Both the position numbers and the translations under genes were made by a program. A stretch of 64,000 bases of DNA from Desulfurococcales archaeon. GTDB taxonomy: Archaea; Thermoproteota; Thermoprotei_A; Sulfolobales; NBVN01. This document shows, one piece after another, positions 9,365-39,412 of this stretch. The stretch covers positions 144,412 to 208,411 of the forward strand of contig WAOK01000001.1 in NCBI GenBank assembly GCA_015521325.1. Direction: 5' to 3'. Each line of letters begins with the position of its first letter. Within the stretch, counting starts at the first letter, position 1. Below the pieces are notes generated by a model. It was not told where the DNA came from, searched no databases, and saw only the letters and a list, made by a program, of their open reading frames with translations.

Positions 9365-9862
9365 TTGGTGAGGGTTCTGTGGGCTCCATGGAGAATGGAG
9401 TACCTGCGGAAATATGGTGGAGGGGTGAAGAGCTGCATATTCTGTGATGCAGTGAGAGGCGATGACAGAAGTCATTATGTGGTCTACAGGAGTAAGTATA
9501 GCATAGCTATACTAAATATATACCCGTATAATACGGCGCACGTCATGGTGGCACCAATACGGCATATTCCGAGGCCGGACCTCCTCACCGAGGAGGAGGC
9601 CATAGACATCCATAAGCTTGTCTCTATTGTTATGAGGGCTATAGAGGATGAGTACTCTCCCCAAGGGTTCAACATAGGCATGAACATTGGAAGGGTAGCG
9701 GGGGCCGGTATTGAGGCCCATATGCATATACACATAGTCCCACGCTGGAACGGAGACACGAACTTTATGCCGGTGATAGCTGGCACGAAGGTTATGCCTG
9801 AGGAACTAAGCACTACATGGGAAAGGATAAGGAGAGCAATACAGCGCCAGCTCAGTAAGTAG
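9365..9862 (+). CDS. HIT-family nucleotide hydrolase/transferase
   Basis: Histidine triad HMHIHIVPRW and N-terminal CIFC. Confidence 0.85.
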   Translation: MVRVLWAPWRMEYLRKYGGGVKSCIFCDAVRGDDRSHYVVYRSKYSIAILNIYPYNTAHVMVAPIRHIPRPDLLTEEEAIDIHKLVSIVMRAIEDEYSPQGFNIGMNIGRVAGAGIEAHMHIHIVPRWNGDTNFMPVIAGTKVMPEELSTTWERIRRAIQRQLSK

Positions 9863-9948: not shown

Positions 9949-10983
9949 ATGAAACATTTAGTGGCAGATCTCACGGGTAAAGACTTAATCACGACCCAGG
10001 ACTGGAGCGTTGAGGAACTCAGGCTTGCCATAGAACTTGCTAAGGACCTGAAGAGGCGGTACGTACACTACGGAATAGAAGGGATACCAAAGATATTAGA
10101 TAGGAAGACGTTCTTCATGCTCTTCTACGCACCCTCTACCAGGACTAGGGCAGCGTTCGAAGCCGCGATGACATACCTTGGCGGCCATGCACAGTACATC
10201 GAGGCCAGAATGACCAGAATGGGTGAAGGTGAGAAGGTGAAAGACGTAGTAACAATGTACGAGAGATACGGGCAGGGCCTAGGCATAAGGATACTCGACA
10301 AGGCGATAGACTTCAAGCATGGCGTCGGTAACGCAATCATAAGGGAGGCCGCCAAGCACATCAGCATACCCGTAATCAACATGGCTGACGACCAGTTCCA
10401 CCCCACCCAGGGACTCGCTGACTACATGACATTCGAGGAGGTCTTCCCGAACCCGAGGGGCAAGAAGTACGTCATCATGTGGGCATACTCCCCGCATATT
10501 AGAGGGCCATGCAGCGTTAACGAGGACCTCCTCCTCTTCACGAGGATGGGTGTTGACGTTACTGTGGTCTATCCGCCGGAGTTCGAGCTATACCCGGACA
10601 TCGTGGAGATGGCCAAGAAGAACGCTGAGGCGAGCGGCGCCCACCTTGAGTTCAGCCACGACTACAAGGAAGCGTTGAGGGGCGCCCACGCAGTCTTCCC
10701 GAGGAACTGGGCGACCAGGCAGCTCCAGGAGCTAGGGTACAGCAAGTTCGCTGAGCAGGAGCTCCAGATATACGAGAAGTACAAGGACTGGAAGGTCACT
10801 AAGGAGCTCATGGACCTCATGGACAAGAGCGGTGTACTAATGCACGTCATGCCCATAATGAGGGGCTATGAGGCCGACGACGAGGTCGTTGACTCACCCA
10901 GATCGGTGCTCTACGAGCAGGCCGAGAACGGGCTATGGACCAAGGCCGCTGTCCTGGCCTTGACCATGGCCAACATAAGGTAA
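9949..10983 (+). CDS. YgeW-type carbamoyltransferase paralog 1 (substrate unknown)
   Basis: Carbamoyl-phosphate motifs STRTR and HPTQGLAD. YgeW-like WAYSPHIRGPCSV and KDWKVT. Lacks the OTC HCLP motif (has HVMPIMRG). Confidence 0.8.
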   Translation: MKHLVADLTGKDLITTQDWSVEELRLAIELAKDLKRRYVHYGIEGIPKILDRKTFFMLFYAPSTRTRAAFEAAMTYLGGHAQYIEARMTRMGEGEKVKDVVTMYERYGQGLGIRILDKAIDFKHGVGNAIIREAAKHISIPVINMADDQFHPTQGLADYMTFEEVFPNPRGKKYVIMWAYSPHIRGPCSVNEDLLLFTRMGVDVTVVYPPEFELYPDIVEMAKKNAEASGAHLEFSHDYKEALRGAHAVFPRNWATRQLQELGYSKFAEQELQIYEKYKDWKVTKELMDLMDKSGVLMHVMPIMRGYEADDEVVDSPRSVLYEQAENGLWTKAAVLALTMANIR

Positions 10984-11111
10984 GCGAAATCTTAACATAG
11001 ATATGCATAAACGATAGGCAAACACCACATAATTTTCTTAGCCACCTAAACCAGGTAGCATTAGACTCTCTTTTTAAAAAGCCGACCAATCATTAAGGTG
11101 AGGTCCTGACC

Positions 11112-12182
11112 ATGGGACTTCCTTGGTATGTCGGGTACTTCGAGGGCAAGCACTGGCTAACCAACATTGACTACACCCAGGAAGACATAAGGAAGGTCAT
11201 AGAGGCGGCCCTTGACCTGAAAAGGAAGTTCAGGAGCCGGGTACCAACCCCCTACCTCAAGGGTAAGACGCTCTTCATGCTATTCTATAACAGGTCGCTA
11301 AGGACCAGGAACAGCTTCGAGGCCGGCATGTTCCAGCTGGGCGGCCACGCCCACTTCCTCTCCCCGAACGACGTCTACACGCCGACCCTGCCGGAGGACA
11401 TGGAGCCCTACAAGACCGAGGCCATCAGGGACGTGGCCAGGGTGCTCAGCAGGTACGGCGACGGCATAGCTATAAGGATCTATGGCGACGCAGCCAAGTG
11501 GCATATCGGCAGGGGACACAGGGTCATCGAGGAGTTCGCTAAGTGGGCAGAGATACCCGTGCTTAACATGGAGGACGACGTCTACCACCCGTTCCAAGCC
11601 CTCGCTGACATAATGGCGGTTCTGGAGGTCATGCCGAAGATACAGGGCAAGAAGTTTGTCGTATCCTACGCCTACAGCGGCGGTCTAAAGCCCCTCGCCG
11701 TCCCGCAGAGCGTGACTCTAATAGCGGCGATGTTCGGCGCCGAGGTCGTGCTGGCCCACCCGCCGGGCTTCGAGCTACAGGATCACATAATCCAGAAGGC
11801 TAAGGAGCTTGCGGATCAGTACGGCGGTAGCTTCACCATAACCAACAACATGGAGGAAGCCTTCGAAGGTGCTGCTGTGGTCTATCCGAAGGCCTGGTCG
11901 CCGAAGGGCTTCTTCCCGCCGTATAACAGCTCAGTAGACAAGGAGGGCGCTAAGGAGTACCAGAAGAAGTTCAAGGACTGGATAGTCACTATGGATCTCC
12001 TTGAGAAATCTGGCAAGCCGTACTACATGCACTGCGGCCCTGCTGACAGAGGGCAGGAGGTCACTGACGAGGTGCTTGACAGCTACGAGAAGAGCCTCTA
12101 CTTCCAGGAGGCGGAGAACAGGCTCCACGTCCAGAAGGCCGTAATGGCCATGGTTATGGGCTCTAGGTTCCAGGAGTTTTAA
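11112..12182 (+). CDS. YgeW-type carbamoyltransferase paralog 2 (substrate unknown)
   Basis: SLRTRNSFE, HPFQALAD, YAYSGGLKPLAVPQS, YPKAWSP, KDWIVT, YMHCGPADRG. This closely parallels E. coli YgeW as I recall it. Confidence 0.8.
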   Translation: MGLPWYVGYFEGKHWLTNIDYTQEDIRKVIEAALDLKRKFRSRVPTPYLKGKTLFMLFYNRSLRTRNSFEAGMFQLGGHAHFLSPNDVYTPTLPEDMEPYKTEAIRDVARVLSRYGDGIAIRIYGDAAKWHIGRGHRVIEEFAKWAEIPVLNMEDDVYHPFQALADIMAVLEVMPKIQGKKFVVSYAYSGGLKPLAVPQSVTLIAAMFGAEVVLAHPPGFELQDHIIQKAKELADQYGGSFTITNNMEEAFEGAAVVYPKAWSPKGFFPPYNSSVDKEGAKEYQKKFKDWIVTMDLLEKSGKPYYMHCGPADRGQEVTDEVLDSYEKSLYFQEAENRLHVQKAVMAMVMGSRFQEF

Positions 12183-12248
12183 ATCAAAACCTCAAAATAA
12201 CCTATAACCCAAACCGCATGAGTAAATCACAAGTATCGGTGATCAGTC

Positions 12249-13214
12249 ATGTCTGAGAGGAACGAGAAGTATGTGTTGATTGCTCTGGGAGGTAACGCGT
12301 TCCAGACTAAGGGCGAGCCTGGTACGCCTGAGAACTACTGGAAGAACGCGTATAGAGCAGCCGAGACAATAGTGAAGATAATTAAAGAAGGGTATAAGGT
12401 GGCGATCACCCACGGTAATGGTCCGCAGGTAGGAACGATACTTGAGTGGATGGAGAGATCTAAGGACAAGATACCGCCACTAACAATGGACATAGCCGGT
12501 GCAATGACTCAGGGTTGGCTGGGCTACCTGCTCATGCAGGCTATCGGCAACCTCCTCATCAAGGAAGGCATCAAGGACCACGTCAAGGGCGTAGTGGCTA
12601 TAGTGAACCAGGTGCTCGTAAGCAAGGACGACCCAGCTTGGCAGAACCCAACCAAGTATGTCGGTAGCTACTACACTGAGGAGGAGGCCAAGCGCCTGGC
12701 CAAAGAAAAGGGCTGGGTGATTAAGCCTGACCCGAGGGGCGGCTGGAGGAGGGTTGTGCCCTCCCCAGACCCCAAGGAAAACATTGAGGTAGGTGCTGTT
12801 AAGAAACTGCTTGATGAGGGCTGGATAGTTATAGCATCAGGTGGAGGCGGCATACCTGTGGTCAGGGAGGATGACGGTACCCTAAAGGGTGTTGAGGCAG
12901 TGATCGACAAGGACTTGGCGGGAGAGGTTCTGGCGACCGCACTAGGTGTTGGCCAGTTCGTAATCCTCACCGACGTTGACGGTGTGTACCTGAACTTCAA
13001 GCAGCCCAACCAGAAGAAGCTTGACGTGGTGAAGGCCTCAGAGCTTGAGAAGTACTACAAGGAGGGTCACTTCAAACCAGGTTCCATGGGCCCGAAGGTA
13101 TTAGCAGCGATAAGGTTCGTGAGACACGGTGGTCTTAGGGCTGCTATTGGTCACCTAAAGCAGGGATATGAAGTCGTTAAGGGACAGGCAGGAACCACGA
13201 TACTCCCAGATTGA
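12249..13214 (+). CDS. arcC: Carbamate kinase
   Basis: ALGGNAF, THGNGPQVG, GGGGIPV, DKDLA motifs. 321 aa. Confidence 0.9.
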   Translation: MSERNEKYVLIALGGNAFQTKGEPGTPENYWKNAYRAAETIVKIIKEGYKVAITHGNGPQVGTILEWMERSKDKIPPLTMDIAGAMTQGWLGYLLMQAIGNLLIKEGIKDHVKGVVAIVNQVLVSKDDPAWQNPTKYVGSYYTEEEAKRLAKEKGWVIKPDPRGGWRRVVPSPDPKENIEVGAVKKLLDEGWIVIASGGGGIPVVREDDGTLKGVEAVIDKDLAGEVLATALGVGQFVILTDVDGVYLNFKQPNQKKLDVVKASELEKYYKEGHFKPGSMGPKVLAAIRFVRHGGLRAAIGHLKQGYEVVKGQAGTTILPD

Positions 13215-13231
13215 GTAGAAGAGGATAATGA

Positions 13232-13242
13232 TTTTTTCTTTT
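13232..13242 (+). terminator. Oligo-T tract after carbamate kinase (possible archaeal terminator)
   Basis: TTTTTTCTTTT lies 18 nt after the stop and opens a 221-nt AT-rich spacer inside the cluster. Confidence 0.3.
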
Positions 13243-13435
13243 AATCTAAGTTGTTTCTAATTTTCATCGACTCATACGCAATAATCTTTAATTCCAGTTC
13301 TGGCCTAGGCTATCTTAACTAAATAATGTACATTATCGAATATAATAGTACCTCGCCCCGTATCTTGCTTATTTGCTTTCCTTAATTAACGGTTTATTAA
13401 AAGGTACGCCAGCGATAGATTTCTAGGAGAAGATT

Positions 13436-14824
13436 ATGAAAGATAAAGTTGACATGCTCATAAATAACGCTCTCGTTGTAACAATGAATAAAAACAGAGA
13501 CGTCATACCAAGAGGTTTTGTTGCTGTAAGAGACGGGAAAATTGTCGACGTAGGCGTAGGTGATGGCACCAGCAAGTACGAGGCAGAGGAGGTTATTGAG
13601 GGACGGCGCACGATTGTCACACCAGGCTTTGTATGTGCTCACACACATTTCTATGGCGTGTTACTTGCTGCCTCTACATGGTTCGGGCTTATCGAGCCAC
13701 CCACAGACTTTCAACAGAACCTGCAGAGGATATGGTGGGCCCTTGATGAAAACATAACACACGACGATATCTATGCAGCCTCATTAATGGGTTCCATAAT
13801 GTTCGCCAGAACAGGCACCACCTTCTTCAAGGACATGAACTCCTCACCAAATTCAGTAACTAACGGTCTGGACTATATAAGGAAAGGAGCGGAGGAGGTC
13901 GGTCTGAGGGGCTATGCTGGCTTCTGCGCTACACAGAGAAGGAGTCTGGAGGAGGGCTTTAAGATAATAGCTGAGAACGAGAGATTCGTTAGAGAAACAC
14001 ATGCCGACCCCAAGGCTAAAGTAAAGGGATTCTTCGCTGTTCACGCGTCCTTTACCGTAACCGATGATGTCCTAATCAAGACTAAGGAACTAGCTGACAA
14101 GTACGGCACGATTTATGCGATGCATGTGGAGGAAGGTCTCATAGACGTTTACCACAACATAGAAAGGTATGGCAAGAGACCTGTCGAGAGGCTTAGGGAC
14201 ATCGGGTTCCTATCTGACAGGTTCGTTGCGGTGCACGTGGTTCAGGCAATCGATGAGGAGCTCAAAATAATTAAGGAATACGGCGTGCACGTGGCACATA
14301 ATGCTATGAGCAACATGATAAACGGCGTTGGCGTCCCACGTATCCAGAGAATGCTGGAGCTGGGCATAAATGTCGCTATAGGCAACGACGGTTACGTATT
14401 CGATGTATTCGATAATATGAGGTCGACGTACCTCGTTCATAAGGTCGTGAACAAGGATCCGAGGATCCTTGCCCCTCTAGATGTTATCGAGATGGCGACA
14501 ATCAACGCTGCTAAGGCCCTGCACGTAGACGATAGAATAGGGTCGATAGAGCCGGGTAAGGACGCTGACATAGTGATCATAAGGCCTGAGTTCGTGCCGA
14601 CGCCGCTGAATGAGAAAACGGTATACGGCCACATGGTAAATACGTTCACCGGCCAGGATGTTTGGGGTGTCCTTGTGGAGGGTAGGTGGGTGACCAAGGA
14701 GAGGAAGGTCGTGACGGTGGACGTCGAGGATGCTATGGAGAGAGCCCACAAGACCATAGCGAGGCTCTGGGATAGGATGGCTTCGATGGAGGAGAAATAT
14801 AAGATAGAGTACCTCCGTACGTGA
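13436..14824 (+). CDS. SsnA-like amidohydrolase (cyclic amidohydrolase/chlorohydrolase superfamily)
   Basis: PGFVCAHTHFYG metal site, RIWWALDENITHDDIY (compare SsnA NLWWRLDRAL), HVEE, HNAMSNM, GNDG. Confidence 0.75.
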   Translation: MKDKVDMLINNALVVTMNKNRDVIPRGFVAVRDGKIVDVGVGDGTSKYEAEEVIEGRRTIVTPGFVCAHTHFYGVLLAASTWFGLIEPPTDFQQNLQRIWWALDENITHDDIYAASLMGSIMFARTGTTFFKDMNSSPNSVTNGLDYIRKGAEEVGLRGYAGFCATQRRSLEEGFKIIAENERFVRETHADPKAKVKGFFAVHASFTVTDDVLIKTKELADKYGTIYAMHVEEGLIDVYHNIERYGKRPVERLRDIGFLSDRFVAVHVVQAIDEELKIIKEYGVHVAHNAMSNMINGVGVPRIQRMLELGINVAIGNDGYVFDVFDNMRSTYLVHKVVNKDPRILAPLDVIEMATINAAKALHVDDRIGSIEPGKDADIVIIRPEFVPTPLNEKTVYGHMVNTFTGQDVWGVLVEGRWVTKERKVVTVDVEDAMERAHKTIARLWDRMASMEEKYKIEYLRT

Positions 14825-14846
14825 ACTTTTGTGGGGGTGAACGTAG

Positions 14847-16067
14847 GTGGCGGTAGACCTAACCGTAGAGATAGCGGGCCTAAAGTTCAAGAACCCCATT
14901 CTGAACTCTGCGTGCCCCATATCTAGGGATGGGCCGGCTATGGAGAGACTGGCTGAGGCCGGAATAGGTGGCCTAGTGAGCAAAACTATAGGCGTCGTCG
15001 CCGCTAAGGTACCGAGACCACACATGGGCGTGGTGAACAGGGGCATAATCGATATGGTCGTGCCGACGTACAGGGGAGGACAGTTCCAGACTAGGGTTAA
15101 TAGAATAAGGGGCGCGTTCTACGGACTCCTTAACGCTGAGCTGTGGACTGATCTCCCACCGGAGCAGTGGTTCGAGAAGGAGCTGCCCTACGCCAGGAAA
15201 GTTGCTGACAAGTTCGGGATACCCCTGATCGCCAGCATCGGTTACAAGCCCCACGAGCTGAAGGAGCTCGGGCCGAAGGCGGTAAAGGCTGGTGCCGAGG
15301 GCATAGAGTTCTCGACACACTACCTCGGCTACGATTACAGGCCGGTTATCGAGTCAGCTAAGGCGCTGAGGGAGGCCGTGGATGTGCCGATATTCCCGAA
15401 GCTCTCTCCACACATCTACGGGCTCACTGAGATGGTCAAAGAGCTCGAGCAGGTCGGCGTGGACGGTATAGTAGCTATAAACACTGTGGGCCCAGCCCTC
15501 CACATAGACATCGAGACCGGCAGACCATACATGGGCGGCCCCTTCGGCCACGGCTGGCTCTCGGGCCCAGCAATAAAGCCCATAGGTGTGGCGATAGTGG
15601 CGGAGATAGCAAAGAACACTAAGCTCCCCGTGATCGGTGTCGGAGGAGTCACCACGCCTGAGGACGTGATCGAGTACATAATGGCCGGTGCCTCGGCGGT
15701 GCAGGTCTGTACATCAGTCCTCGTGGAAGGTCTTGGAGTAATAAAGAAGCTTGTCGAGGGGGTTGAGAAGTGGCTGAAGGAGCACGGCTACTCATCGATT
15801 GAGGACATAAGGGGTAAGGCCCTGAAGTACCTGACCAAGGAGCCAGGGTGGTGGGAGATAAAGCCGCCGAAGGTCAATGAGGAGCTCTGTATCTCGTGCG
15901 GGCTCTGTGAGCAGGTCTGTGACTACGACGCTGTCCACCTAGTGAATAAGGGCGGCAAGCTACTGCCTGTAGTGAACGAGCAGAAGTGCTACGGATGCGG
16001 CCTCTGTACGACAGCCTGCCCGACCAGAGCGATACACTTCCCAGACGAGTACTGGCCCAAGATATGA
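14847..16067 (+). CDS. Dihydroorotate/dihydropyrimidine dehydrogenase (PreA)-like flavoenzyme with C-terminal 2x[4Fe-4S] ferredoxin domain
   Basis: TIM-barrel DHODH-fold motifs (FKNPILNSA, GVGGV). C-terminus CISCGLCEQVCD and CYGCGLCTTACP. GTG start. Confidence 0.8.
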   Translation: MAVDLTVEIAGLKFKNPILNSACPISRDGPAMERLAEAGIGGLVSKTIGVVAAKVPRPHMGVVNRGIIDMVVPTYRGGQFQTRVNRIRGAFYGLLNAELWTDLPPEQWFEKELPYARKVADKFGIPLIASIGYKPHELKELGPKAVKAGAEGIEFSTHYLGYDYRPVIESAKALREAVDVPIFPKLSPHIYGLTEMVKELEQVGVDGIVAINTVGPALHIDIETGRPYMGGPFGHGWLSGPAIKPIGVAIVAEIAKNTKLPVIGVGGVTTPEDVIEYIMAGASAVQVCTSVLVEGLGVIKKLVEGVEKWLKEHGYSSIEDIRGKALKYLTKEPGWWEIKPPKVNEELCISCGLCEQVCDYDAVHLVNKGGKLLPVVNEQKCYGCGLCTTACPTRAIHFPDEYWPKI

Positions 16068-16149
16068 AGCGAGTAGGCGTCCGTTTTTACAATTGCAAGT
16101 TAATTTTCTCACATAACCTCACCCACTCATTACCTCTGAGGTCCCAGAG

Positions 16150-17424
16150 TTGAGTAGGTTCATTAAGTACCTAAAGTGCTCCAGATGCGGCAGGATCTAC
16201 TCATATGAGGACGCCCGGATAACGTGCGAGAATAATGACCTAGGTAGGCTCGACATATATTATGACTACGAAGCGATGAAGGAAGTCGTGACGAAAGATT
16301 ACCTAGCTAAGATACCGCTTGAGAGCATGTGGAAATACAAGGACCTCATCCCACCAAAGGACGAGAGCAAGATCGTTAGCCTAGGCGAGGGCGCTACCCC
16401 GCTAATAAAGGCGAAGAGGCTGGCGGAGGAGCTCGGCCTGAAGAACCTCTATCTGAAGGACGAGACCAGGAACCCTACGGGCTCGTTTAAGGACAGGGGC
16501 ATGTCGGTTGCGGTAAGTGTTGCCAAGGAGTTCGGCTTTACTAAGGCAGTAACAGCGTCCAGCGGTAACGCCGCCGCTGCACTGGCGGCCTACGGTGCCA
16601 GGGCCGGGATCGACGTCATAGCGTTCGTGATAGAGCAGGCTGGCTACGGCAAGATAGCCCAGCTCCTCTTCTACGGTGCCAAGGTATTCAGGGTGCGCGG
16701 ACTCGGTAGGGAAGACCCGACCGTTAAGTTAATGAGGATGGTGCACGAGAAGTTCGGCTTCTACATGGCCCCAAGCTTCGGTCCCTTCAACCCGTACCAG
16801 ATCGAGGGTCCCAAGACGATCTCCTATGAGGTCGTGGAGCAGCTGGGCTGGAGAAGGCCTGACTGGGTCTTCGTTCCCGTTGGAGCGGCGTCACTCCTCA
16901 CAGGAGTCTGGAAGGGGTTCAGGGACTTTAGGGAGCTAGGCATAATACCTGACCTACCTCACCTCTTTGCCGTTCAGTCAACAGGTAACCCACCGTTCGT
17001 GAGAGCATACAAGGAAGGACAGGACCCATTCAACATAAGACCCTGGGATCACCCCCACACAATAGCTTGGGGCCTCGAGGACCCGTACCCCTGGGACGGT
17101 GACGCAGGTATAGCGGCTCTTAAAGAGACTAAGGGCGACGCCGAGGAGGTTCCGGACGAACTAATACTGAAGGCAATGAAGCTCCTAGCATCTAGGGAGG
17201 GTGTGTTCGCAGAACCTTCCGGCGCGGCTGGACTTGCTGGTCTCATGGCAGCGCTTGAGGACGGGAGAATAGATAAAGATGAGGAGGTAGTGGTGCTCAT
17301 AACAGGTCACGGACTCAAGGACCCAGACGTAGTAAAGGAGAGTGCTGGCGACGCTCCCACGATCAGCGCTGACCTCGAGGAATTCAAGGCTGTTCTGAGC
17401 AATGCTTACGGCATTAAGATCTAG
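16150..17424 (+). CDS. Fold-type II PLP enzyme, threonine synthase-like, with N-terminal zinc ribbon
   Basis: PLP-lysine motif TGSFKDRG, SSGNAA, N-terminal CSRCGRIY...C. TTG start. Confidence 0.75.
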   Translation: MSRFIKYLKCSRCGRIYSYEDARITCENNDLGRLDIYYDYEAMKEVVTKDYLAKIPLESMWKYKDLIPPKDESKIVSLGEGATPLIKAKRLAEELGLKNLYLKDETRNPTGSFKDRGMSVAVSVAKEFGFTKAVTASSGNAAAALAAYGARAGIDVIAFVIEQAGYGKIAQLLFYGAKVFRVRGLGREDPTVKLMRMVHEKFGFYMAPSFGPFNPYQIEGPKTISYEVVEQLGWRRPDWVFVPVGAASLLTGVWKGFRDFRELGIIPDLPHLFAVQSTGNPPFVRAYKEGQDPFNIRPWDHPHTIAWGLEDPYPWDGDAGIAALKETKGDAEEVPDELILKAMKLLASREGVFAEPSGAAGLAGLMAALEDGRIDKDEEVVVLITGHGLKDPDVVKESAGDAPTISADLEEFKAVLSNAYGIKI

Positions 17425-17522: not shown

Positions 17523-18512
17523 ATGAGGACATTAGTGAGGGGAAACGACCACGGAGTAATATCGGTTAGCTTAGTTGACATAGATGGTGTCGAGGACGGA
17601 AGGATCCGCATAGTTACCCACGCACACTCAGACCACACGGTGGGTCTGAGCAAGAGCGCTAACATATCAGAGAAGATAGTCGCCACTCCCCTCACGCTTG
17701 AGTGGTTGCCCGTGCTCGGCTATAAACTACCGAGGCATAAGCTACTACCCCTTAACTACGGCGAGGGGGTAAAGGCGGGTGATCTAAAAATAACGTTCTA
17801 TGAGTCGGTGCATATTCCCGGCACTGCGCAGGTGATGATAGAGTTCCCAGACGGTACAACACTAGCTTACACAAGCGATTTCAAGAAACCCGGTGAGGGT
17901 ACCCCCATCTTGAGCCCGGATGTGCTGGTCATCGACGCCGTTTATGGGAGGCCGAACTACGTGAGGGAGTTTGACGACATCATAGACACAATCCTCGCTG
18001 ATGCAGTGAGAGAGCTCCTAGCAACTGGGCCTGTGTACCTTTACGGTTACCATGGCAAAATACAGGAGGTAATGGAGGTACTCCGCAGAGAAGGTGTCGA
18101 CGCCCCCTTCATACTGCCGTATAAGCAGTATCAGTTGGCGAGAATAGCCGAGAGACACGGTCATAGGTTCGGTGACTACGTTCTCCAGGGAACAGATGAG
18201 GCCGAGGACATAGTTAGGGATGGGTGGTTCATCTACTTCGCTCACGTCAACTCGAAGAAGAGGCTGAACGGCGTTATGGGTAACCACCTAATACTGAGTG
18301 GGTGGGAGTTCAGCAGACCCTACAAAAGGATAGGGCGGAATAAGTGGCTCGTGGCCTTTAGCGATCACGCGGACTTCATGGGACTCCTTAAGTACGTGGA
18401 GGAAAGCCAGCCTAAGCTCCTGCTTGTGAACTCGCCGAGGAGCACGGGAGGGATAGAATTCGCTGAGTACATTAGGAAAAAACTTGGGATAGAGGCCCTG
18501 CTACTCCCCTAA
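17523..18512 (+). CDS. Metallo-beta-lactamase fold hydrolase, beta-CASP-like (possible RNA/DNA nuclease)
   Basis: THAHSDHTVG (HxHxDH) and C-terminal FSDHADF. Confidence 0.6.
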   Translation: MRTLVRGNDHGVISVSLVDIDGVEDGRIRIVTHAHSDHTVGLSKSANISEKIVATPLTLEWLPVLGYKLPRHKLLPLNYGEGVKAGDLKITFYESVHIPGTAQVMIEFPDGTTLAYTSDFKKPGEGTPILSPDVLVIDAVYGRPNYVREFDDIIDTILADAVRELLATGPVYLYGYHGKIQEVMEVLRREGVDAPFILPYKQYQLARIAERHGHRFGDYVLQGTDEAEDIVRDGWFIYFAHVNSKKRLNGVMGNHLILSGWEFSRPYKRIGRNKWLVAFSDHADFMGLLKYVEESQPKLLLVNSPRSTGGIEFAEYIRKKLGIEALLLP

Positions 18513-19496
18513 TTCGGACTCCCTTAGTTCATAAGGTTCCTTAATGAATGACTCAGTCAGTGTCAAGCCGTACTCCTCCAGCAGTATTAGGATTGCCGCC
18601 TGTGGTGGGATCACACCCTTCTCTGTTATTATTGCGTCTATGTACTCTGGCGGCGTGACGTCGAACACTGGGTTATATACCTTAACTTCCGGATTCCTAT
18701 TAAGCCACTCCTCCGTCACTATCTCAAGTGGTGACCTGACCTCTATCGGTACCAGTTCCCCTATCACTGTCTGAGGGCTGAACTTATAGGTCTCACTGGC
18801 GACATACATGCGTACCCTAGCCTCCTTAGCAGCTAGGGCCACCAACGATGTACCGATCTTGTTGATAACTGCGCCATTAGCTGCTATGGTGTCGGCGCCG
18901 ACGACTACCTTATTCACTTTCTTCATGAAGTATCTCACCGAGGAATCCGGTATGAGGATGACGTCAAGGCCTGCATCAGCTAAGGCCCTAGCCGTTATTA
19001 GGCCCTGCATCTTAGGCCTCGTCTCCTTAACGTACACCTTGTGAACCTTGCCCTGGTTATGGGCCGTCGCAATGACTGACACAGCGGCGGTGCTGTGGCA
19101 GTGTGTCATCACTACATCGCCGTTTTCTAATCTCTTGGCGCCGAGTTCCCCAATGATTTTCACAGCGTTAAGTGAGTACTCGATGAACTCCTCAGCAGCG
19201 TTAACGACTGCTCGGACAGCCTCTTCGAGGGATGCCGCTCGGGATCTCTTCAGTCTGTTCATTATGTAGGCGACGGCGTTGGGCAGTGAGACAGCTGTTG
19301 GTCTGGCCGATCTCACAAACTCAGCTATTCTTTCCATGTACGTCATGAAGTCCTCCAAGTCCTTCCCTTTGAACTCCTCAGCAGCTATGGCCAGCGCCCT
19401 TGCCCCTGCCCTAGCTATCCTTCCAGCACCCCTGATTCTCATCTCCTTTATGTCGAGCCAGATCTTCCTTACATCCTCGGGTACGTACTCGCTCAT
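18501..19496 (-). CDS. eIF-2B alpha/beta/delta family protein (ribose-1,5-bisphosphate isomerase-like), paralog A
   Basis: IRGAGRIARAG, THCHS, GADTIAANGAVINKIGT, PVFDVTPPEYIDAIITEKG. Confidence 0.8.
   Translation of the reverse strand: MSEYVPEDVRKIWLDIKEMRIRGAGRIARAGARALAIAAEEFKGKDLEDFMTYMERIAEFVRSARPTAVSLPNAVAYIMNRLKRSRAASLEEAVRAVVNAAEEFIEYSLNAVKIIGELGAKRLENGDVVMTHCHSTAAVSVIATAHNQGKVHKVYVKETRPKMQGLITARALADAGLDVILIPDSSVRYFMKKVNKVVVGADTIAANGAVINKIGTSLVALAAKEARVRMYVASETYKFSPQTVIGELVPIEVRSPLEIVTEEWLNRNPEVKVYNPVFDVTPPEYIDAIITEKGVIPPQAAILILLEEYGLTLTESFIKEPYELRESELGE
18621..18671. repeat. 51-nt perfect direct repeat, copy 1 (inside e2b2 paralog A)
   Basis: ctctgttattattgcgtctatgtactctggcggcgtgacgtcgaacactgg is identical to 19604-19654. 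Confidence 0.9.
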
Positions 19497-20488
19497 AGGG
19501 ACCTCACCTCCCGGAGGAGTTCCTTAATGCTCTTCACTTTCGGGGGGAGTCCATATTTCTCTTTAATGAGTATAGGTACGGCCTGCGGGGCAATGAGCCC
19601 GTGCTCTGTTATTATTGCGTCTATGTACTCTGGCGGCGTGACGTCGAACACTGGTTCCCTAACTATTACCTTACCCGTTAGCTCACCCATCCTATCCGGG
19701 GGGATTATGAGCTCAGGATCATTCAGGACGATGCCTTCAATCAGTTCTCCGAAGACTGTCTCTATACCGAACTTGTAGGTGCCAGCAGCTACTAACACTC
19801 TGGTTCTTGCCTCTTTCGCTGCCAGAGCTATTGCTGATGTGCCTGCCTTATTGACTATTGCGCCGTTAGCTGCCACCGCATCAGCGCCGACTATTACTTT
19901 GTTTATCTTTTTCATCACGAACCGCACAGCAGAGTCAACGATGAGTGTTGTGTCGACCCCCATCTTGGCTATTTTTTCCGCGGCAATCAAGCCTTCTCCC
20001 AAGGGTCTTGACTCAGTGACGTATACACTGAAGTTCTTGCCTTCTCTCAGTGCTTCCTCGAATATTCTTATGACTGAGGTGCTGTAGGAGTGTGTGAGGA
20101 TGACGTCTCCATTAACTATTCTTTTTGCACCGACCCTCGCCACTATTTTCTTCGTGTGCTCTATCTCCTCATATATTCTATCTATTATTGCAGGGGCTTT
20201 CTCAATGGCTGTCTCAACACCACTTTTCTTGACCTCATCAACGAACCCAATTAAGAATTCCCTGATAAGGTTTGACATAACCATAGATGTGGGCCTAGCA
20301 CCTATTATTGTCTCTATCCAGCTAGGGAGGTGCTTTACGAAGTCCTGCCTACATATCTTGACAGCGTCTGAGAGGAATGAGAGGGCGGCGTAAGCTGCCT
20401 CCGTGGATCCGAGTATTCTGCCGTGCCTGAGGTCGGAGGCTAAGGCACCAACTCTAGCAGTCATTTCTTTACACTGCTGTTTCATCAA
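19493..20488 (-). CDS. eIF-2B alpha/beta/delta family protein, paralog B
   Basis: THSYS, GADAVAANGAIVNKAGT, PVFDVTPPEYIDAIITEHG. Overlaps paralog A by 4 nt. Confidence 0.8.
   Translation of the reverse strand: MMKQQCKEMTARVGALASDLRHGRILGSTEAAYAALSFLSDAVKICRQDFVKHLPSWIETIIGARPTSMVMSNLIREFLIGFVDEVKKSGVETAIEKAPAIIDRIYEEIEHTKKIVARVGAKRIVNGDVILTHSYSTSVIRIFEEALREGKNFSVYVTESRPLGEGLIAAEKIAKMGVDTTLIVDSAVRFVMKKINKVIVGADAVAANGAIVNKAGTSAIALAAKEARTRVLVAAGTYKFGIETVFGELIEGIVLNDPELIIPPDRMGELTGKVIVREPVFDVTPPEYIDAIITEHGLIAPQAVPILIKEKYGLPPKVKSIKELLREVRSL
19604..19654. repeat. 51-nt perfect direct repeat, copy 2 (inside e2b2 paralog B)
   Basis: Identical to 18621-18671. The flanking sequence has diverged. Confidence 0.9.
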
Positions 20489-20564
20489 CTATCACATGTT
20501 ACTCTTCTTATCAGCCCCAGAAAATCCTAACCACGAAGTGATCGGTGGCTACGAACATCTAACC

Positions 20565-21536
20565 CTAGGTCACTGCGGGTTCGGCGAACTTTCTGCATAT
20601 AGTCACGTACTTCATGAGTTCGACGTATGTTGGCGAACCCCTCGGTTCCTCTTTTGATGCATTAATTGTGGCAGCGCATGTTGCCAGAACCATGGCGTCG
20701 ATGAAGTCATAGCCCACGGATATCGCCGCTGTGAACACGCCAACGTATGCGTCCCCACAACCACTTGTCGACCTAGTCCTCAGTCCGAGTCTCTCTGTGG
20801 GTATACCACGCACTACAAGCACGCGATCCTTCATGAATAGTCTTGAACCCTTGATTCCCTCTTTGCTGAGCACGAACAACTCCGGATTCACCTTTCTCAG
20901 TATCATCACCCCTTCCTCAACACTAGTTGCCTGTGTCATGGATAGGAGCTCGTCCTTATTCGGCGCTATTATATCGACTCGGTGGATGATGCCCCTCAGT
21001 TTATCTATTCCTTCGTGTGAGAGTGAGCCTGGATCCCATACCACCATAGCGCTTTGATCCCTAGCCCAACCAGCAATGGCTTCGGCAACCTCTATGGGCG
21101 GGTTCATTATTAATACGGCAGTTGGTTTAATTCCGGAATTAATGAGCGGCTGCATGTCTGCGTTACTTAGTGCCTCATTTGCTCCGTAGTAGCTGTAGAT
21201 AGCGGTTTCTCCTGACGGATTTACAGCGACGAATGCTTGTCCGGATTCGACACCTTCCTTGATGACGATGAATGACGTATCTACTCCTTCATTTCTCAGT
21301 GCACTGAGGTGCTTCCTACCTATATCATCATTACCTACTGCACCAAACATGATCACTGTCCCGCGCGTCCCCAGGAATCGCGCAGCAGCCGTGGCGGCAT
21401 TACCGCCTGACCCTCCCAGGTACCTCGCCAGCGCCTTAACCCTAACCTTGGGTGGGGCGAACCTATCGACAAAAAGCATGATGTCATAGTTCAGTGAGCC
21501 AGCCACTACGACCTTAATCTTTTTATTCCTATCCAT
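20565..21536 (-). CDS. PfkB-family sugar/nucleoside kinase (ribokinase-like)
   Basis: N-terminal VVVAGSLNYD, GGSGGNAA, C-terminal GCGDAYVG anion-hole motif. Confidence 0.8.
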   Translation of the reverse strand: MDRNKKIKVVVAGSLNYDIMLFVDRFAPPKVRVKALARYLGGSGGNAATAAARFLGTRGTVIMFGAVGNDDIGRKHLSALRNEGVDTSFIVIKEGVESGQAFVAVNPSGETAIYSYYGANEALSNADMQPLINSGIKPTAVLIMNPPIEVAEAIAGWARDQSAMVVWDPGSLSHEGIDKLRGIIHRVDIIAPNKDELLSMTQATSVEEGVMILRKVNPELFVLSKEGIKGSRLFMKDRVLVVRGIPTERLGLRTRSTSGCGDAYVGVFTAAISVGYDFIDAMVLATCAATINASKEEPRGSPTYVELMKYVTICRKFAEPAVT

Positions 21537-28120: not shown

Positions 28121-28258
28121 CCCTATTATCAAGTAGTAGCATAGTAACGCCCACAACTAACCCTGGATGCGAGCCGTTATTGCTCAGTCCTAACGTAACA
28201 TGTGTTTTTCATTGTTGGCTTCTCCTTAACTATGTGGTGGACTTACTTGGCAGACCTA

Positions 28259-29626
28259 ATGATAAAGGCGAAATTCATTATCCCGGTCAGGCCCTCAAAG
28301 AAGATCATACGTGATGGTGCCATCGTCGTTGAGGACGGACGGATAGTGTTTGTCGGTAAGCGCCACGTGGCTGAGGAGAAATATAGTGCTGAGGAGGTGA
28401 TTGAGGCTAACCACCACGTAGCTATTCCGGGACTGATTAACGCTCACAACCACCTCTTTCAGTCAATAATCAAGAACATAGCCATCGATATGGTGCTGAT
28501 TGACTGGTTGAGGAAAGCCATACACCCGATACTCGCATCGTTCCGTGACTCGGACTTCTATTACTCCACGAAGTGGGGCGTTATAGAGAACATAAAGTCG
28601 GGTGTCACCACGCTCATAGAGAACCACTACGGCCCCAAGGGATACGACTACGTCGCTAAAGGGCTCATGGAGTCGGGCATAAGGACGGTACTCGCTAGGG
28701 GCATATACGAACTCAACGTGCTACTCGACGAGCTTAAGGAGGAGCCGAAGGCAGCGATCTCCCACACCGAGTACCTCATACAGAAGTATCACGGGAAGAA
28801 CGACGGAAAAATGATGGTTGCTGTCGCGCCGATGCATCCATACAACTCAAGCAAGGAACTCCTCCTCATGGCTAAGGATCTCTCTGATAAGTACGGGGTG
28901 CCCTACCATACCCACACGGCCGAGTCCGTAAAGGATCAGGAGTTAGTGAAGGAGCTCCACGGAAAGACGGATGTCGCGCTACTGTACGACCTCGGGATCC
29001 TTGGACCAAGATACCACGCAGTACACTCTGTGCAGGTGTCTGAGGAAGAAGTACTTATGCTGGCTAAGACAGGTGCACACGTAATACACAACCCAGAGAG
29101 CAATCTAATAATAGGTTCAGGCATAGCACCGATACCTGACTTCCTCAAGGCGGGCGTTAACGTGGCCCTAGGCACGGATGGCGCAGGAAGCAACAACAAC
29201 CAGGACATGATAGAGGCCATGAGGTTCGCAGTGCTCATACATAGGGGGGCTAGGAAGCACCCGAACATAGTAACTGCCTGGGACGCCCTAGAGATGGCCA
29301 CCATTAACGGCGCAAAGGCCCTCGGGCTAGAGAATGAGATAGGTTCACTAGAGCCGGGTAAGAAGGCAGACATAACCATCATAGACCTGGAGAGCCCGAG
29401 CATAGCTCTCGCCCACGACCCACTCGGCTCAATAGTCTACTGTGCGAACGCCGCCGATGTCGACACAGTCATAGTTGATGGTAAGGTGATCATGAAGAAT
29501 AGAAAGGTGCTCACAATAGACGAGGAGAAGGCCAAGGAAGAGGCGTGGAAGGTCGCGCTCGACCTCCTCGACAGGGCCAGGCAAAAATTCGATATGAAGT
29601 TCCCGTACGAAGAATTCATCGAGTGA
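28259..29626 (+). CDS. Amidohydrolase, 5'-methylthioadenosine/S-adenosylhomocysteine deaminase (MtaD)-like
   Basis: PGLINAHNHLFQS, HTHTAES, HSV, GTDGAGSNN. ATG at 28259 gives the typical MIKAKFIIP start. The upstream part of the track ORF runs into the tRNA-Tyr flank. Confidence 0.8.
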   Translation: MIKAKFIIPVRPSKKIIRDGAIVVEDGRIVFVGKRHVAEEKYSAEEVIEANHHVAIPGLINAHNHLFQSIIKNIAIDMVLIDWLRKAIHPILASFRDSDFYYSTKWGVIENIKSGVTTLIENHYGPKGYDYVAKGLMESGIRTVLARGIYELNVLLDELKEEPKAAISHTEYLIQKYHGKNDGKMMVAVAPMHPYNSSKELLLMAKDLSDKYGVPYHTHTAESVKDQELVKELHGKTDVALLYDLGILGPRYHAVHSVQVSEEEVLMLAKTGAHVIHNPESNLIIGSGIAPIPDFLKAGVNVALGTDGAGSNNNQDMIEAMRFAVLIHRGARKHPNIVTAWDALEMATINGAKALGLENEIGSLEPGKKADITIIDLESPSIALAHDPLGSIVYCANAADVDTVIVDGKVIMKNRKVLTIDEEKAKEEAWKVALDLLDRARQKFDMKFPYEEFIE

Positions 29627-31538: not shown

Positions 31539-32075
31539 ATGGTGGGTGCTGTGGTAAAGCTCCTTATCATATCGGACACCCATGATAACTTAGCAGCCAT
31601 AGATGACCTCATTAAATGCCTTCGAGCAGGGGGCTATACCTATGACTCCGTTGTGCATCTAGGCGACATAATCTCGCCTTTCACGTTAAGGAAACTCATA
31701 AACGAGCTTGATGCACCCATGATAGCGATCTTCGGAAATAATGACGGCGATAAATCCCTTCTTAAGAGTATCTTGCCGGGCATAGCCGACCCGCCGGTAG
31801 TAATGGAGCTGGGAGGACGTAAGACCCTCTTACTCCATGGCTTCAAGTCTCCAGAAATGACCGAACTCTTTGTGAATTCCTTAGCGAATAGTGGGGCATA
31901 TGACATCATATTATATGGGCATACGCACGTGGCCAGGATTGTGAGAAGGGGCAGTACATTGGCCGTTAACCCCGGCACAGTATCCGGTTATGTCAGTGGT
32001 AAGAGAACATTCGCTATCCTAGACACTGATAAATTAGATACAAAGATTGTTGATATGGATCAGTGCATCATGTGA
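31539..32075 (+). CDS. MJ0936/YfcE-family metallophosphoesterase
   Basis: IISDTHDN, LGDI, GNNDGD, YGHTH motifs. Confidence 0.8.
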   Translation: MVGAVVKLLIISDTHDNLAAIDDLIKCLRAGGYTYDSVVHLGDIISPFTLRKLINELDAPMIAIFGNNDGDKSLLKSILPGIADPPVVMELGGRKTLLLHGFKSPEMTELFVNSLANSGAYDIILYGHTHVARIVRRGSTLAVNPGTVSGYVSGKRTFAILDTDKLDTKIVDMDQCIM

Positions 32076-38557: not shown

Positions 38558-38997
38558 TACAGTGGTATTTCAACAGTAGTTGTCGCACCAGCGTCGGAGG
38601 TTAGGGTAACCACTACCAGTTGGGGTGATGTGACGCTGCCGGTTGCAACGATTACGAGTGTCTGTCCGGGGCTCACGGTTCCTCCTGCAGGTATGGTTGA
38701 GTATTGAGCTGCAGTTGTTGTTCCGTCGCTCCCGACTATGTTGACGCCTGTTACGCTGAAGTCCGAGTCACTGTTGTTCTTCAGTTTGATTGTCACAGTT
38801 AAGGTGCCGTTTCTTAGCTCTTTGGATGTCAGTGTGCCCGATATCTCAGGTATCGCTGTCTGCTCGGATACCTTACTCGCTTGTCCCTGTAACCATGACT
38901 GCACGGCGAACGCTACGGGTATAGCTATGGCGGCCATGACGAGCACTACTATTAGGTCGCTCACGCCTTTCCTCATCCTGCGGGATCTTGCCCTCAT
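38557..38997 (-). CDS. Archaeal type IV pilin-like protein with class III signal peptide
   Basis: MRARSRRMRKG|VSDLIVVLVMAAIAIPVAFAV: a basic n-region, KG cleavage motif and hydrophobic helix, followed by a Thr/Ser/Val-rich beta domain. Confidence 0.75.
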   Translation of the reverse strand: MRARSRRMRKGVSDLIVVLVMAAIAIPVAFAVQSWLQGQASKVSEQTAIPEISGTLTSKELRNGTLTVTIKLKNNSDSDFSVTGVNIVGSDGTTTAAQYSTIPAGGTVSPGQTLVIVATGSVTSPQLVVVTLTSDAGATTTVEIPL

Positions 38998-39078
38998 GGG
39001 GTTCCCCGTGAGTAGAGGGTGTTTTTAAAGTGTGCATGGGGGTGTTGGCTTAAATGATTAGCTGATTTCCTCCCTAGA
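38998..39078. promoter_or_regulatory. Compact divergent promoter region between the pilin operon and the wHTH gene
   Basis: An 81-nt spacer. GTTTTTAAAG (about 39020-39030) serves as a TATA-like element for the minus strand and CTTAAATGAT (about 39049) for the plus strand, each roughly 25-30 nt from its start codon. Confidence 0.4.
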
Positions 39079-39378: not shown

Positions 39379-39412
39379 CTCTTTTAATTTAATTCTACTC
39401 GAGGGGGTGTGA

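Follow-up and report, generated by a model that had tools for sequence, protein, structure and literature searches.

The 64,000-nucleotide stretch of the Desulfurococcales contig WAOK01000001.1 analysed here (the window) carries at positions 9949-17424 six genes which, in our moderately confident view, are likely to encode an archaeal ATP-yielding heterocycle catabolism of the reductive purine (uric acid/2,8-dioxopurine) type. An earlier note on this DNA had read the genes as an archaeal counterpart of the bacterial ygeW/yqeA/ssnA cluster; the logic of that reading, in which a heterocycle is reduced and opened, ureido groups are phosphorolysed and ATP is gained through carbamate kinase, still stands, but the pathway is incomplete in the window. 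The six genes had been described as co-directional, and they are found as six open reading frames (ORFs) on the plus strand, with limits identical to the claimed span and boundaries that fit the lengths of their homologues:

9949-10983, plus strand: T1, a carbamoyltransferase of 344 amino acids (aa) with OTCace_N and OTCace domains
11112-12182, plus strand: T2, a carbamoyltransferase of 356 aa with OTCace_N and OTCace domains
12249-13214, plus strand: carbamate kinase of 321 aa (TIGR00746)
13436-14824, plus strand: amidohydrolase of the SsnA clade (AMH), 462 aa, with an Amidohydro_1 domain and SsnA as its best NCBIfam model
14847-16067, plus strand: flavoenzyme (FLV) of 406 aa, GTG start, with a DHO_dh domain (PF01180) and 4Fe-4S clusters, best model PreA
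16150-17424, plus strand: pyridoxal-phosphate (PLP) enzyme of 424 aa, TTG start, with a PALP domain

The grouping of these genes is not a matter of chance, as dozens of archaeal genomes have these genes side by side, some in this order and some in others. The nearest public sequence belongs to a Desulfurococcales metagenome-assembled genome (MAG; locus L005), in which T1 is 99% identical at the protein level. Xanthine dehydrogenase (XDH), YgeY and HyuA, said by the earlier note to be missing, were not found by tblastn of the window, and neither was a homologue of YgfK or YgeX (tblastn/BLAST). A shared-motif search of the upstream regions of the six genes gave one 8-mer common to three of the regions.

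The reductive uric acid pathway with which the cluster is compared was solved in 2025 in E. coli and clostridia (bioRxiv 10.1101/2025.04.24.650524; PMC12507026). The cluster of E. coli and Clostridium sporogenes comprises XdhD/XdhAC, YgfK, SsnA, HyuA, YgeW, YqeA and YgeY, together with YgeX; XdhD converts urate to 2,8-dioxopurine, which YgfK then dearomatises, ring opening ends at 2,3-diureidopropionate, YgeW phosphorolyses one ureido group with ATP formed by YqeA, YgeY hydrolyses the other, and YgeX converts 2,3-diaminopropionate to pyruvate (bioRxiv 10.1101/2025.04.24.650524; PMC12507026). YgeW and YqeA together yield ATP from 2,3-diureidopropionate in vitro (bioRxiv 10.1101/2025.04.24.650524), and this compound, since demonstrated in bacteria, matches the di-ureido intermediate which the earlier note had supposed for two transferases (bioRxiv 10.1101/2025.04.24.650524; PMC12507026). 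In C. difficile the PydA-like Fe-S flavoprotein UacX, a clostridial substitute with ferredoxin as the suggested donor, stands in for YgfK, and UacY stands in for YgeW/YqeA; for the Chloroflexota an F420-type reductase of the luciferase family has been proposed as a variant (PMC12507026).

All of the motifs previously cited for the transferases and the amidohydrolase were located by a motif search of the translations. T1 has STRTR (aa 63), HPTQ (151), WAYSP (178), KDWKVT (279) and HVMP, and T2 has SLRTR (62), HPFQ (159), YAYSGG..VPQ (186-199), KDWIVT (288) and YMHCGPADRG (305). The carbamoyl-phosphate motifs SxRT and HPxQ are thereby kept in both, with HxLP varied to HV(M/L)P in T1 (HVMP in the window protein) and to HCGP in T2. 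The enzymes were aligned with E. coli YgeW, ArgI and PyrB, the acetylornithine carbamoyltransferase (AOTC) of X. campestris and the ornithine carbamoyltransferase (OTC) of P. furiosus. In this alignment the OTC loop DxxxSMG was not found in T1 or T2, which have FPRNWAT and YPKAWSP instead, and the RxQxER motif of aspartate carbamoyltransferase (ATC) was found in neither. Both proteins fall below the cutoffs of the models for OTC (TIGR00658, 198 bits for T1 and 236 for T2 vs 281), ATC (TIGR00670, 122 and 105 vs 237) and AOTC (NF003384, 205 and 269 vs 288). Judged by these motifs and scores, T1 and T2 are neither OTC nor ATC; nor is the flavoenzyme an ordinary PyrD (see below), and the outcome that the earlier note had named as its own refutation did not occur. 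They are 38% identical to one another, each being nearer the other than any reference, and T2 is followed immediately downstream by the carbamate kinase gene. Among the recurrent neighbour families, which were those annotated, no arg genes could be recognised near T1 or T2.

The further description of the two transferases as YgeW-type holds in part. In its favour are indels which they have in common with YgeW. The insertion in the Pro-rich loop (WAYSPHIRGP in T1) and the extended 120s loop of T1 and T2 align with YgeW and AOTC and do not occur in the OTCs of P. furiosus and E. coli; these two features are the signature of the knotted class comprising YgeW, AOTC and SOTC (Shi et al. 2015, PMC4581275). 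T1 and T2 carry that signature at the level of sequence, with the knot itself a predicted one. A lengthened 240s loop with KDW is also common to T1 (where KDWKVT lies inside it), T2 and YgeW, although the loop of T1 and T2, whilst longer than that of OTC and AOTC, is 11 residues shorter than that of YgeW. The YgeW models TIGR03316 and NF005538 gave 128.1 and 138.3 bits for T1 and 141.3 and 140.1 for T2, well short of their cutoffs of 500 and 453, and the additional N- and C-terminal helices of YgeW are missing from both T1 (344 aa) and T2 (356 aa). Identity to YgeW does not exceed 31% (T1 is 31% identical to the E. coli enzyme and 25% to ArgI), and among solved structures P. furiosus OTC and X. 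campestris AOTC come nearest, with YgeW ranking lower. The 80s loop is long and AOTC-like in T2 and short, of the YTCase/OTC type, in T1; T2 also holds equivalents of AOTC E144 (NME) and K252 (YPKAW), with Tyr in place of AOTC Trp77.

A phylogeny, which the earlier note had proposed, was made by neighbour joining (NJ) with a single reference each for YgeW and AOTC. With columns retained that had gaps of up to 30%, T1, T2 and YgeW grouped with 100% bootstrap support, but ungapped columns gave 21-41%, and the former value was therefore dropped as proof of kinship. The AlphaFold model of T1 has a confidence (pLDDT) of 84, with low confidence at residues 119-122 and 181-183, which belong to the diagnostic loops; a Foldseek comparison of this model with the Protein Data Bank (PDB) does not discriminate between the families because every transcarbamylase matches with a template-modelling (TM) score of 0.8-0.85, OTC and AOTC ranking first. 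By their shared indels T1 and T2 are two clades of knotted-class transferases that are related to YgeW and are not members of it. Relatives at E<=1e-20 number 1270 for T1 and at least 7982 for T2; all source names among the best 120 listed are OTC for T1, and OTC with a few AOTC for T2, one 'hypothetical protein' among them excepted. T2 occurs in Desulfurococcales, Nitrososphaerota, Hadarchaeota and Nezhaarchaeales, and its identity between several archaeal phyla is 70-87%.

The carbamate kinase scores 382.9 bits with TIGR00746, the arcC equivalog model (cutoff 358.25), and is 41% identical to E. coli YqeA. The amidohydrolase has HTHFY (aa 69), of which HTH is the HxH metal motif, and WWALDE (100). 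SsnA is its top model, 67 bits above the next family, though the SsnA cutoffs are missed (IPR017700; NF005540, 330.1 vs 444; TIGR03314, 308.7 vs 455.5), and its identity is 29% to E. coli SsnA (429 aa) and 21% to GuaD. In the suggested comparison with SsnA the archaeal AMH family and E. coli SsnA form a clade with 100% bootstrap support (NJ, 380 ungapped columns), outside which lie GuaD and the paralogous deaminases of the TRZ type. WWxLD was limited to E. coli SsnA and five of the six archaeal family members tested, being found in neither the TRZ paralogues nor GuaD; among eight members of the SsnA clade it is missing from two, the copy in locus L060 and a Hadarchaeota relative. On the tree and the motif, the amidohydrolase belongs to the SsnA clade. 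The flavoenzyme gene begins 22 bp past its stop codon.

The flavoenzyme consists of a DHO_dh (FMN) barrel and a C-terminal 2x[4Fe-4S] ferredoxin domain (PF01180 and Fer4); no FAD/NAD(P)H domain was found in its 406 aa and no PreT/GltD-like partner nearby. Two CxxCxxCxxxCP clusters had been claimed for it, and two Fe-S motifs are indeed present, CISCGLCEQVCD and CYGCGLCTTACP, but the second is the sole one that ends in CP. The best model is PreA (210 bits, below the cutoff of 335), and all PyrD cutoffs are missed (173 vs 270, 168 vs 269 and 130 vs 330), so that the protein is not an ordinary PyrD. It is 28% identical to E. coli PreA, its nearest solved structure is pig dihydropyrimidine dehydrogenase (DPD), and the loop that holds the catalytic Cys in PreA and DPD is replaced by a conserved FSTHYLGYD. 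The flavoenzyme is of the PreA/UacX type, the likeness to C. difficile UacX (Q181U4) being one of described architecture.

The PLP enzyme exceeds the cutoffs of two threonine-synthase models (NF006050, 343.7 vs 303; TIGR00260, 220.1 vs 167.1), and its nearest structures are true threonine synthases (ThrC; 213-236 bits, 2zsj being highest at 236), with which it has the PLP-lysine motif SFKDRG in common. The five solved ThrCs all have NS.N..R.EGQKT and GN.GN, where the window enzyme has GPFNPYQIEGPKT and GAASL. Four residues of the T. thermophilus enzyme (N154, S155, R160 and N188) are invariant in these five and are replaced by G, P, Q and A, respectively, in the enzyme of the window; across 40 members of its family the four positions are G in 39, P in 33, Gln in 39 and Ala in 36. 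These residues are presumed to be those that reportedly hold the phosphate of the substrate (Omi et al. 2003). The enzyme is probably a diverged homologue of threonine synthase and not itself a threonine synthase. A 60-aa N-terminal extension is rich in Cys, as the claim of a zinc ribbon implied, although what is conserved is three Cys (C10, C13 and C26) and Asp30 rather than four Cys, and no Pfam zinc-ribbon model matched the protein. The enzyme is, by BLAST, not a relative of YgeX: E. coli YgeX gave no match to the PLP enzyme or the window at E<=1e-3, and a YgeX homologue was found in none of 87 archaeal loci (E<=1e-8), where the ThrC-like gene is the constant partner.

The distribution of the gene set was examined by a scan with the T1 alignment over one genome per species, which gave 80 loci (numbered with an L), onto which the six proteins were placed by tblastn and in which neighbouring ORFs were clustered; gene counts refer to 47 T1-anchored loci of at least 15 kb, and the checks for YgeX, YgeY and HyuA to 87 loci. 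The earlier note had suggested looking for the set in other archaea, and its members do recur in the 47 loci, in part with their order rearranged: T2 in 38, carbamate kinase in 33, the PLP enzyme in 31, the flavoenzyme in 19 and the SsnA-like AMH in 17, the last two being retained as a pair in 17-19. The PLP gene is linked to transferases in L089 and L091 also. The order of the window, with its flanking HIT and metallo-beta-lactamase (MBL)-fold genes, is found in about 20 Desulfurococcales/Zestosphaera MAGs. Rearranged orders occur in Desulfurococcales, Bathyarchaeia, Nitrososphaerota and Hadarchaeota, and strand varies too; other Desulfurococcaceae have T1 / FLV- / PLP- / T2- or PLP T1 T2 kinase, and Bathyarchaeia have T2- kinase- / T1+ / PLP-. 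Within the Desulfurococcales the SsnA-like and flavoenzyme genes accompany T1 and T2 through such rearrangements (L045, L055, L056, L059 and L062). As order and strand differ between lineages, selection rather than inherited synteny would account for the linkage, and its survival of rearrangement across phyla points to a shared function.

The company kept by these genes elsewhere points towards purines. The neighbours in 23 of the 47 loci include genes for XDH-family enzymes, adenine deaminase, TRZ-type deaminases, HyuA-like enzymes or PnrA/Bmp-type ABC transporters. The XDH-family neighbours, present in 7 of the 47, are three-subunit enzymes whose best models are pucD/XdhA; HyuA-like genes occur in 10 of the 87 loci and YgeY-like genes in 3. 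The neighbours also include members of the hydantoinase/allantoinase/dihydroorotase family of cyclic amidohydrolases, whose identity to E. coli HyuA reaches 38%, and a second, CysK-like PLP enzyme is another that recurs. Related archaeal loci in this way supply the XDH-family, adenine deaminase and HyuA-like enzymes that are 'missing' from the window, which supports the reading as N-heterocycle catabolism. Purine markers are fullest in L059, L062 and L060; the first two hold nearly all components with no carbamate kinase within 10 kb, and L060 has the window-type order with a hydantoinase, an adenine deaminase and a deaminase upstream. A Thaumarchaeota MAG (L089) brings together T2, MoeA/MobB, a luciferase-like reductase, an SsnA-like protein (43%), an orthologue of the PLP enzyme (50%), a HyuA homologue (38% identical to the E. 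coli protein) and adenine deaminase.

Hadarchaeota repeat the same pathway logic using different family members, XDH and T1 being joined in their loci by a third transferase, an amidohydrolase and a DHODH-like (dihydroorotate dehydrogenase-like) flavoprotein. This third transferase (L081, 6770-7807; L082, 2210-3229) adjoins T1 and an XDH-family gene. It has HALP for HCLP, an insertion of the Pro-rich type and a long 240s loop, is 33-37% identical to T1 and T2, and joins P. furiosus OTC weakly (65%) in the NJ tree; it may be another catabolic, ureido-phosphorolysing enzyme.

In Zestosphaera tikiterensis a window-type operon (L014) shares its contig with two XDH-family sets and a PyrB about 240 kb away. 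This PyrB is canonical, with RLQKER and HPLP and a TIGR00670 score of 341 (cutoff 237), so that T1 is not needed there as ATC; the lineage has both Mo-hydroxylases and a normal ATC. The region concerned (L094; NBVN01000002.1, 502618-524951) is itself of a mixed kind: two divergent three-subunit XDH-family sets bracket a cyclic amidohydrolase, PyrB stands beside them without an adjacent PyrI, and a PALP-PadR fusion protein lies close by, so that pyrimidine-biosynthesis-like and purine-oxidation genes are intermingled. The cyclic amidohydrolase was tried as an equivalent of HyuA and rejected, as it passes the allantoinase and dihydroorotase-domain cutoffs and lies four genes from PyrB across an XDH set.

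The pathway which we favour is drawn from homology and gene context, and would run as follows. The flavoenzyme, UacX-like and probably fed by reduced ferredoxin, would reduce and so dearomatise the heterocycle; the SsnA-clade amidohydrolase would then open the reduced six-membered ring hydrolytically, and a cyclic amidohydrolase encoded outside the window would open the hydantoin ring to give 2,3-diureidopropionate or a similar ureido acid. T1 and T2 would each phosphorolyse one ureido group to carbamoyl phosphate and would together cover the work of YgeW and of the hydrolase YgeY. It might be speculated, because T2 has the AOTC-like Glu and Lys residues, that T2 takes the distal 3-ureido group and T1 the N-alpha-carbamoyl group. 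Carbamate kinase would convert carbamoyl phosphate and ADP to ATP, CO2 and NH3, with a yield of up to two ATP per ring instead of one, and the threonine-synthase homologue, in place of YgeX, would turn 2,3-diaminopropionate or a related beta-substituted alanine into pyruvate and ammonia. For the Mo-hydroxylase and deaminase steps that come before, the genes would lie in other parts of the genome. We put forward as a tentative proposal, somewhat doubtful in itself, that the two transferases make up with the kinase and the PLP enzyme an archaeal module complete in itself, in which both ureido groups of 2,3-diureidopropionate (or a similar di-ureido acid) are phosphorolysed and two ATP are gained per purine ring by substrate-level phosphorylation.

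Several observations weigh against the purine reading and should be set beside it. No Mo-hydroxylase, hydantoinase or nucleobase transporter was found in the window or, on matching contigs, within about 7 kb past either end. Because of this lack of a Mo-hydroxylase and a hydantoin-opening enzyme the purine substrate is taken from other genomes, that is, from guilt by association, and among the 14 window-type (HIT-flanked) loci none had a purine marker within 10 kb. The cyclic amidohydrolase of Zestosphaera may simply be PyrC. On the 275 ungapped columns T1 and T2 join YgeW with only 41% (BLOSUM62) or 21% (identity) support, and YgeW was not in the Foldseek top 50 for the T1 model against the PDB, in a test that is non-discriminating and uses a model with weak loops. 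NCBIfam would label the PLP enzyme a threonine synthase, and carbamate kinase can act anabolically in some archaea (PMC13260591). Locus L060 holds T1, T2 and a YgeY-like peptidase, so that replacement of YgeY by a second transferase is not universal. Bathyarchaeia keep T1, T2, the kinase and the PLP enzyme with no SsnA-like and flavoenzyme genes nearby, so that more than one upstream route may feed into the transferase module; the module occurs in the same manner in Nitrososphaerota and Baldrarchaeota, and in Desulfurococcus and Thermogladius T1 stands alone beside a peptide ABC transporter.

The surroundings of the Bathyarchaeia core (L003, L069-L080) deserve mention here. Around it lie class-III aminotransferases, as many as three of them, together with a CysK-like PLP enzyme, a DAP_DH_C protein and a 2-hydroxyacid dehydrogenase, and the same loci hold a dehydrogenase of the Ldh_2 family, to which ureidoglycolate dehydrogenase belongs. 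Such neighbours suggest that the route upstream is another or a broader one in this phylum.

Three other readings have to be considered, of which a reductive degradation of pyrimidines (uracil/thymine) or of orotate, also with ATP gain, is unlikely without being far-fetched. The flavoenzyme would then be a dihydropyrimidine (or dihydroorotate) dehydrogenase of the PydA/PreA type, the amidohydrolase would open the dihydropyrimidine, and T1 and T2 would take over from the hydrolase PydC by phosphorolysing beta-ureidopropionate and beta-ureidoisobutyrate (or carbamoyl-aspartate), with ATP again made by the kinase. PreA as best model and dihydropyrimidine dehydrogenase as nearest structure agree with this, two transferases could match two pyrimidine products, and neither XDH nor a second ring-opening enzyme would be required, which is the content of the window and of all 14 window-type loci; Aminotran_3 genes, of the class of beta-alanine aminotransferase, moreover occur in 8 of 11 Bathyarchaeia loci. 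However, the amidohydrolase is of the SsnA clade and not of the dihydropyrimidinase/hydantoinase family, the catalytic Cys loop of PreA and DPD is not conserved, the fold-type-II PLP enzyme, which is the most constant partner of T1 and T2, would be without an obvious role in the metabolism of beta-alanine, and the recurrent neighbours in other lineages (XDH family, adenine deaminase, PnrA-type transporters) are purine-specific.

It is improbable that the cluster is instead a biosynthetic operon around carbamoyl phosphate, made by the kinase and used by T2 as an (acyl-)ornithine carbamoyltransferase for arginine, with T1, the amidohydrolase and the flavoenzyme as a non-orthologous ATC, dihydroorotase and DHODH and the PLP enzyme as threonine synthase, the name that NF006050 gives it. 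The succession of kinase, transferase, amidohydrolase and DHODH-fold flavoenzyme does mirror de novo pyrimidine synthesis, the conservation of T2 across phyla (70-87%) is housekeeping-like and its AOTC-like Glu and Lys are kept, carbamate-kinase-type enzymes of the Thermococcales supply carbamoyl phosphate anabolically (PMC13260591, PMC6022934), and the source names among the listed T1 and T2 relatives, one 'hypothetical protein' apart, are OTC or AOTC. Against this, the binding motifs for ornithine and aspartate are missing in T1 and T2, the flavoenzyme has a DPD-type ferredoxin domain besides missing the PyrD cutoffs, the four residues invariant in the solved threonine synthases are replaced in the PLP family, and the recurrent neighbour families include no argG/H or pyrE/F/I and show catabolic markers instead; Zestosphaera, with its window-type operon, has its canonical PyrB and a dihydroorotase/allantoinase-type enzyme elsewhere. 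Improbable as well, finally, is a module of T1, T2, kinase and PLP enzyme that degrades some other ureido compound, be it allantoate, ureidoglycine or oxalurate from an allantoin route or citrulline-like and N-carbamoyl amino acids from peptides, with the amidohydrolase and flavoenzyme as mere neighbours in the Desulfurococcales. Such a module could explain the loci of Bathyarchaeia, Nitrososphaerota and Baldrarchaeota and the lone T1 beside a peptide transporter in Desulfurococcus and Thermogladius; allantoinase-like cyclic amidohydrolases are present in several loci, and a transferase and carbamate kinase acting on allantoate have precedent (PMC4016543). Yet the SsnA-like and flavoenzyme genes of the Desulfurococcales stay with T1 and T2 through several rearrangements, L089 ties T2 and the PLP gene directly to an SsnA-like gene and a reductase, and the loci showed no recognisable gene for uricase or for the allantoate pathway.

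The remainder of the window offers some further features, listed in order of position:

9365-9862, plus strand: HIT-family protein with a weak match to ATP adenylyltransferase (136 vs 290)
17523-18512, plus strand: metallo-beta-lactamase/beta-CASP-like protein flanking the operon
18501-21536, minus strand: ribose-1,5-bisphosphate isomerase operon of three genes, just downstream of the cluster
28202-29626, plus strand: TRZ/ATZ-family amidohydrolase, for which models of 5'-deoxyadenosine/guanine deaminase are best (381 bits, below cutoff)
32068-38557, minus strand: run of four genes with a weak match to CedB-like DNA import (194 vs 700) and a FlaI/VirB11-type ATPase
55057-59283, plus strand: protein of 1408 aa; the corresponding protein of 1403 aa, in the same place on a matching contig, carries a subtilisin (Peptidase_S8) domain

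The operon at 18501-21536 consists of a ribose-1,5-bisphosphate isomerase (TIGR00511, 398 vs a cutoff of 314), a paralogue of the eIF-2B family (250 bits, below cutoff) and a PfkB kinase with weak ribokinase and ribose-1-phosphate-kinase matches. These genes resemble the branch of nucleoside catabolism by which archaea process ribose (the pentose bisphosphate pathway), and they fit a nucleoside-catabolic neighbourhood, a point in favour of assigning the cluster to purine breakdown. Near T1, genes of the eIF-2B family recur in 15 loci, one from a Baldrarchaeota and one from a Korarchaeota-like MAG among them. The deaminase-like protein at 28202-29626 was considered as a purine marker and set aside, being only 33-40% identical to the deaminases beside T1 elsewhere. 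The HIT and MBL-fold genes were likewise rejected as parts of the operon, since no more than the close relatives keep them in these positions (in 14 loci and 12 loci, with 51-68% identity). Two further large proteins in the 32068-38557 run match no family, and the G+C content at 38000-46000 is 0.44-0.48 compared with about 0.52 elsewhere in the window; the region 32068-46000 may be a DNA-transfer or integrated element. The large protein at 55057-59283 fits a proteolytic, scavenging lifestyle.

In the literature searched no description of an archaeal counterpart of the reductive purine pathway was found. The reductive anaerobic breakdown of purines was solved in 2025 for gut bacteria only, neither of the two papers concerned mentions archaea, and their surveys used as criteria 63% identity to YgeW, 33% identity to SsnA or membership of IPR017700 among bacterial sequences (bioRxiv 10.1101/2025.04.24.650524; PMC12507026); because of these criteria the archaeal genes would have been missed. 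What is new relative to the bacteria is the presence of two transferases of different clades, a different terminal PLP enzyme and a ferredoxin-type reductase, the logic of the pathway being already known. If our reading is correct, archaea that scavenge peptides and nucleic acids in hot springs and hydrothermal sediments would have in nucleic-acid bases a source of ATP by substrate-level phosphorylation, and through the Bathyarchaeia the same source would extend to ordinary sediments and soils. The pathway would then also present a case of modular replacement, in which YgeY gives way to a second transferase, YgeX to a derivative of threonine synthase and YgfK to a reductase of the UacX-like or F420 type. 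Should the two-ATP module be real, the yield would be twice that of the bacteria, and nucleobases would be truly fermentative substrates for the hyperthermophilic Desulfurococcales and the globally abundant Bathyarchaeia. There would be consequences for annotation as well. Many archaeal 'ornithine carbamoyltransferase' names within the T1 and T2 families would be wrong and would inflate the arginine biosynthesis predicted in studies of archaeal MAGs. XDH-family genes are often taken in such studies for CO or aldehyde dehydrogenases, and those that adjoin T1 in Hadarchaeota and in Bathyarchaeia may act on purines.

Among known systems the variant of C. difficile is close in its reductase and distant in its energetics. 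UacX, like the window flavoenzyme, combines the PF01180 FMN barrel with Fe-S clusters and has no FAD/NAD(P)H domain, a resemblance of architecture only, but in C. difficile the ureido group is removed hydrolytically with no gain of ATP, where the archaeal cluster has two transferases and a kinase. The Chloroflexota variant has its parallel in the archaeal locus L089, with a luciferase-family protein beside the SsnA-like gene, and the adjoining flavoenzyme and amidohydrolase genes of the window resemble the co-location of dearomatising reductase and SsnA described in bacteria (PMC12507026). The PLP core is closely related to that of class I threonine synthases (PDB 2zsj, 6cgq, 1uim and 2d1f), although the archaeal enzyme has the Cys-rich extension and is linked to transferase and kinase genes instead of thr genes. 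With the knotted AOTCase, SOTCase and YTCase (PMC4581275) T1 and T2 share SxRT, HPxQ, the Pro-rich-loop insertion and the extended 120s loop; unlike AOTCase, they miss the NCBIfam cutoffs and do not lie in arginine clusters. The principle of phosphorolysing a ureido group and then recovering the energy through carbamate kinase is that of the arginine deiminase pathway, with its catabolic OTC, and of the allantoate route of Rubrobacter xylanophilus, in which ureidoglycine carbamoyltransferase is paired with carbamate kinase (PMC4016543); both routes use transferases of other clades on other substrates, whilst the archaeal cluster joins two transferases to a ring-reducing and ring-opening pair.

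The comparison with the cluster of E. coli and C. sporogenes remains the most instructive. The archaeal cluster differs from it in having two transferases of clades separate from YgeW, in the lack of YgeY, YgeX, XDH and HyuA in the window, with a threonine-synthase derivative in the place of YgeX, and in a reductase that is UacX-like and not, as in E. coli, YgfK. The Mo-hydroxylase and HyuA are encoded with the bacterial cluster, whereas neither was found with the window cluster, in the 64 kb or in the adjoining 7 kb or so at each end; its hosts, moreover, are not bacteria but archaea, of which many come from hot springs and hydrothermal sediments. The two nevertheless have in common the reduction of the ring, its opening by an enzyme of the SsnA type, a knotted transferase beside carbamate kinase and a terminal fold-type-II PLP enzyme, and the related archaeal loci extend the likeness by adding XDH-family and HyuA-like genes.

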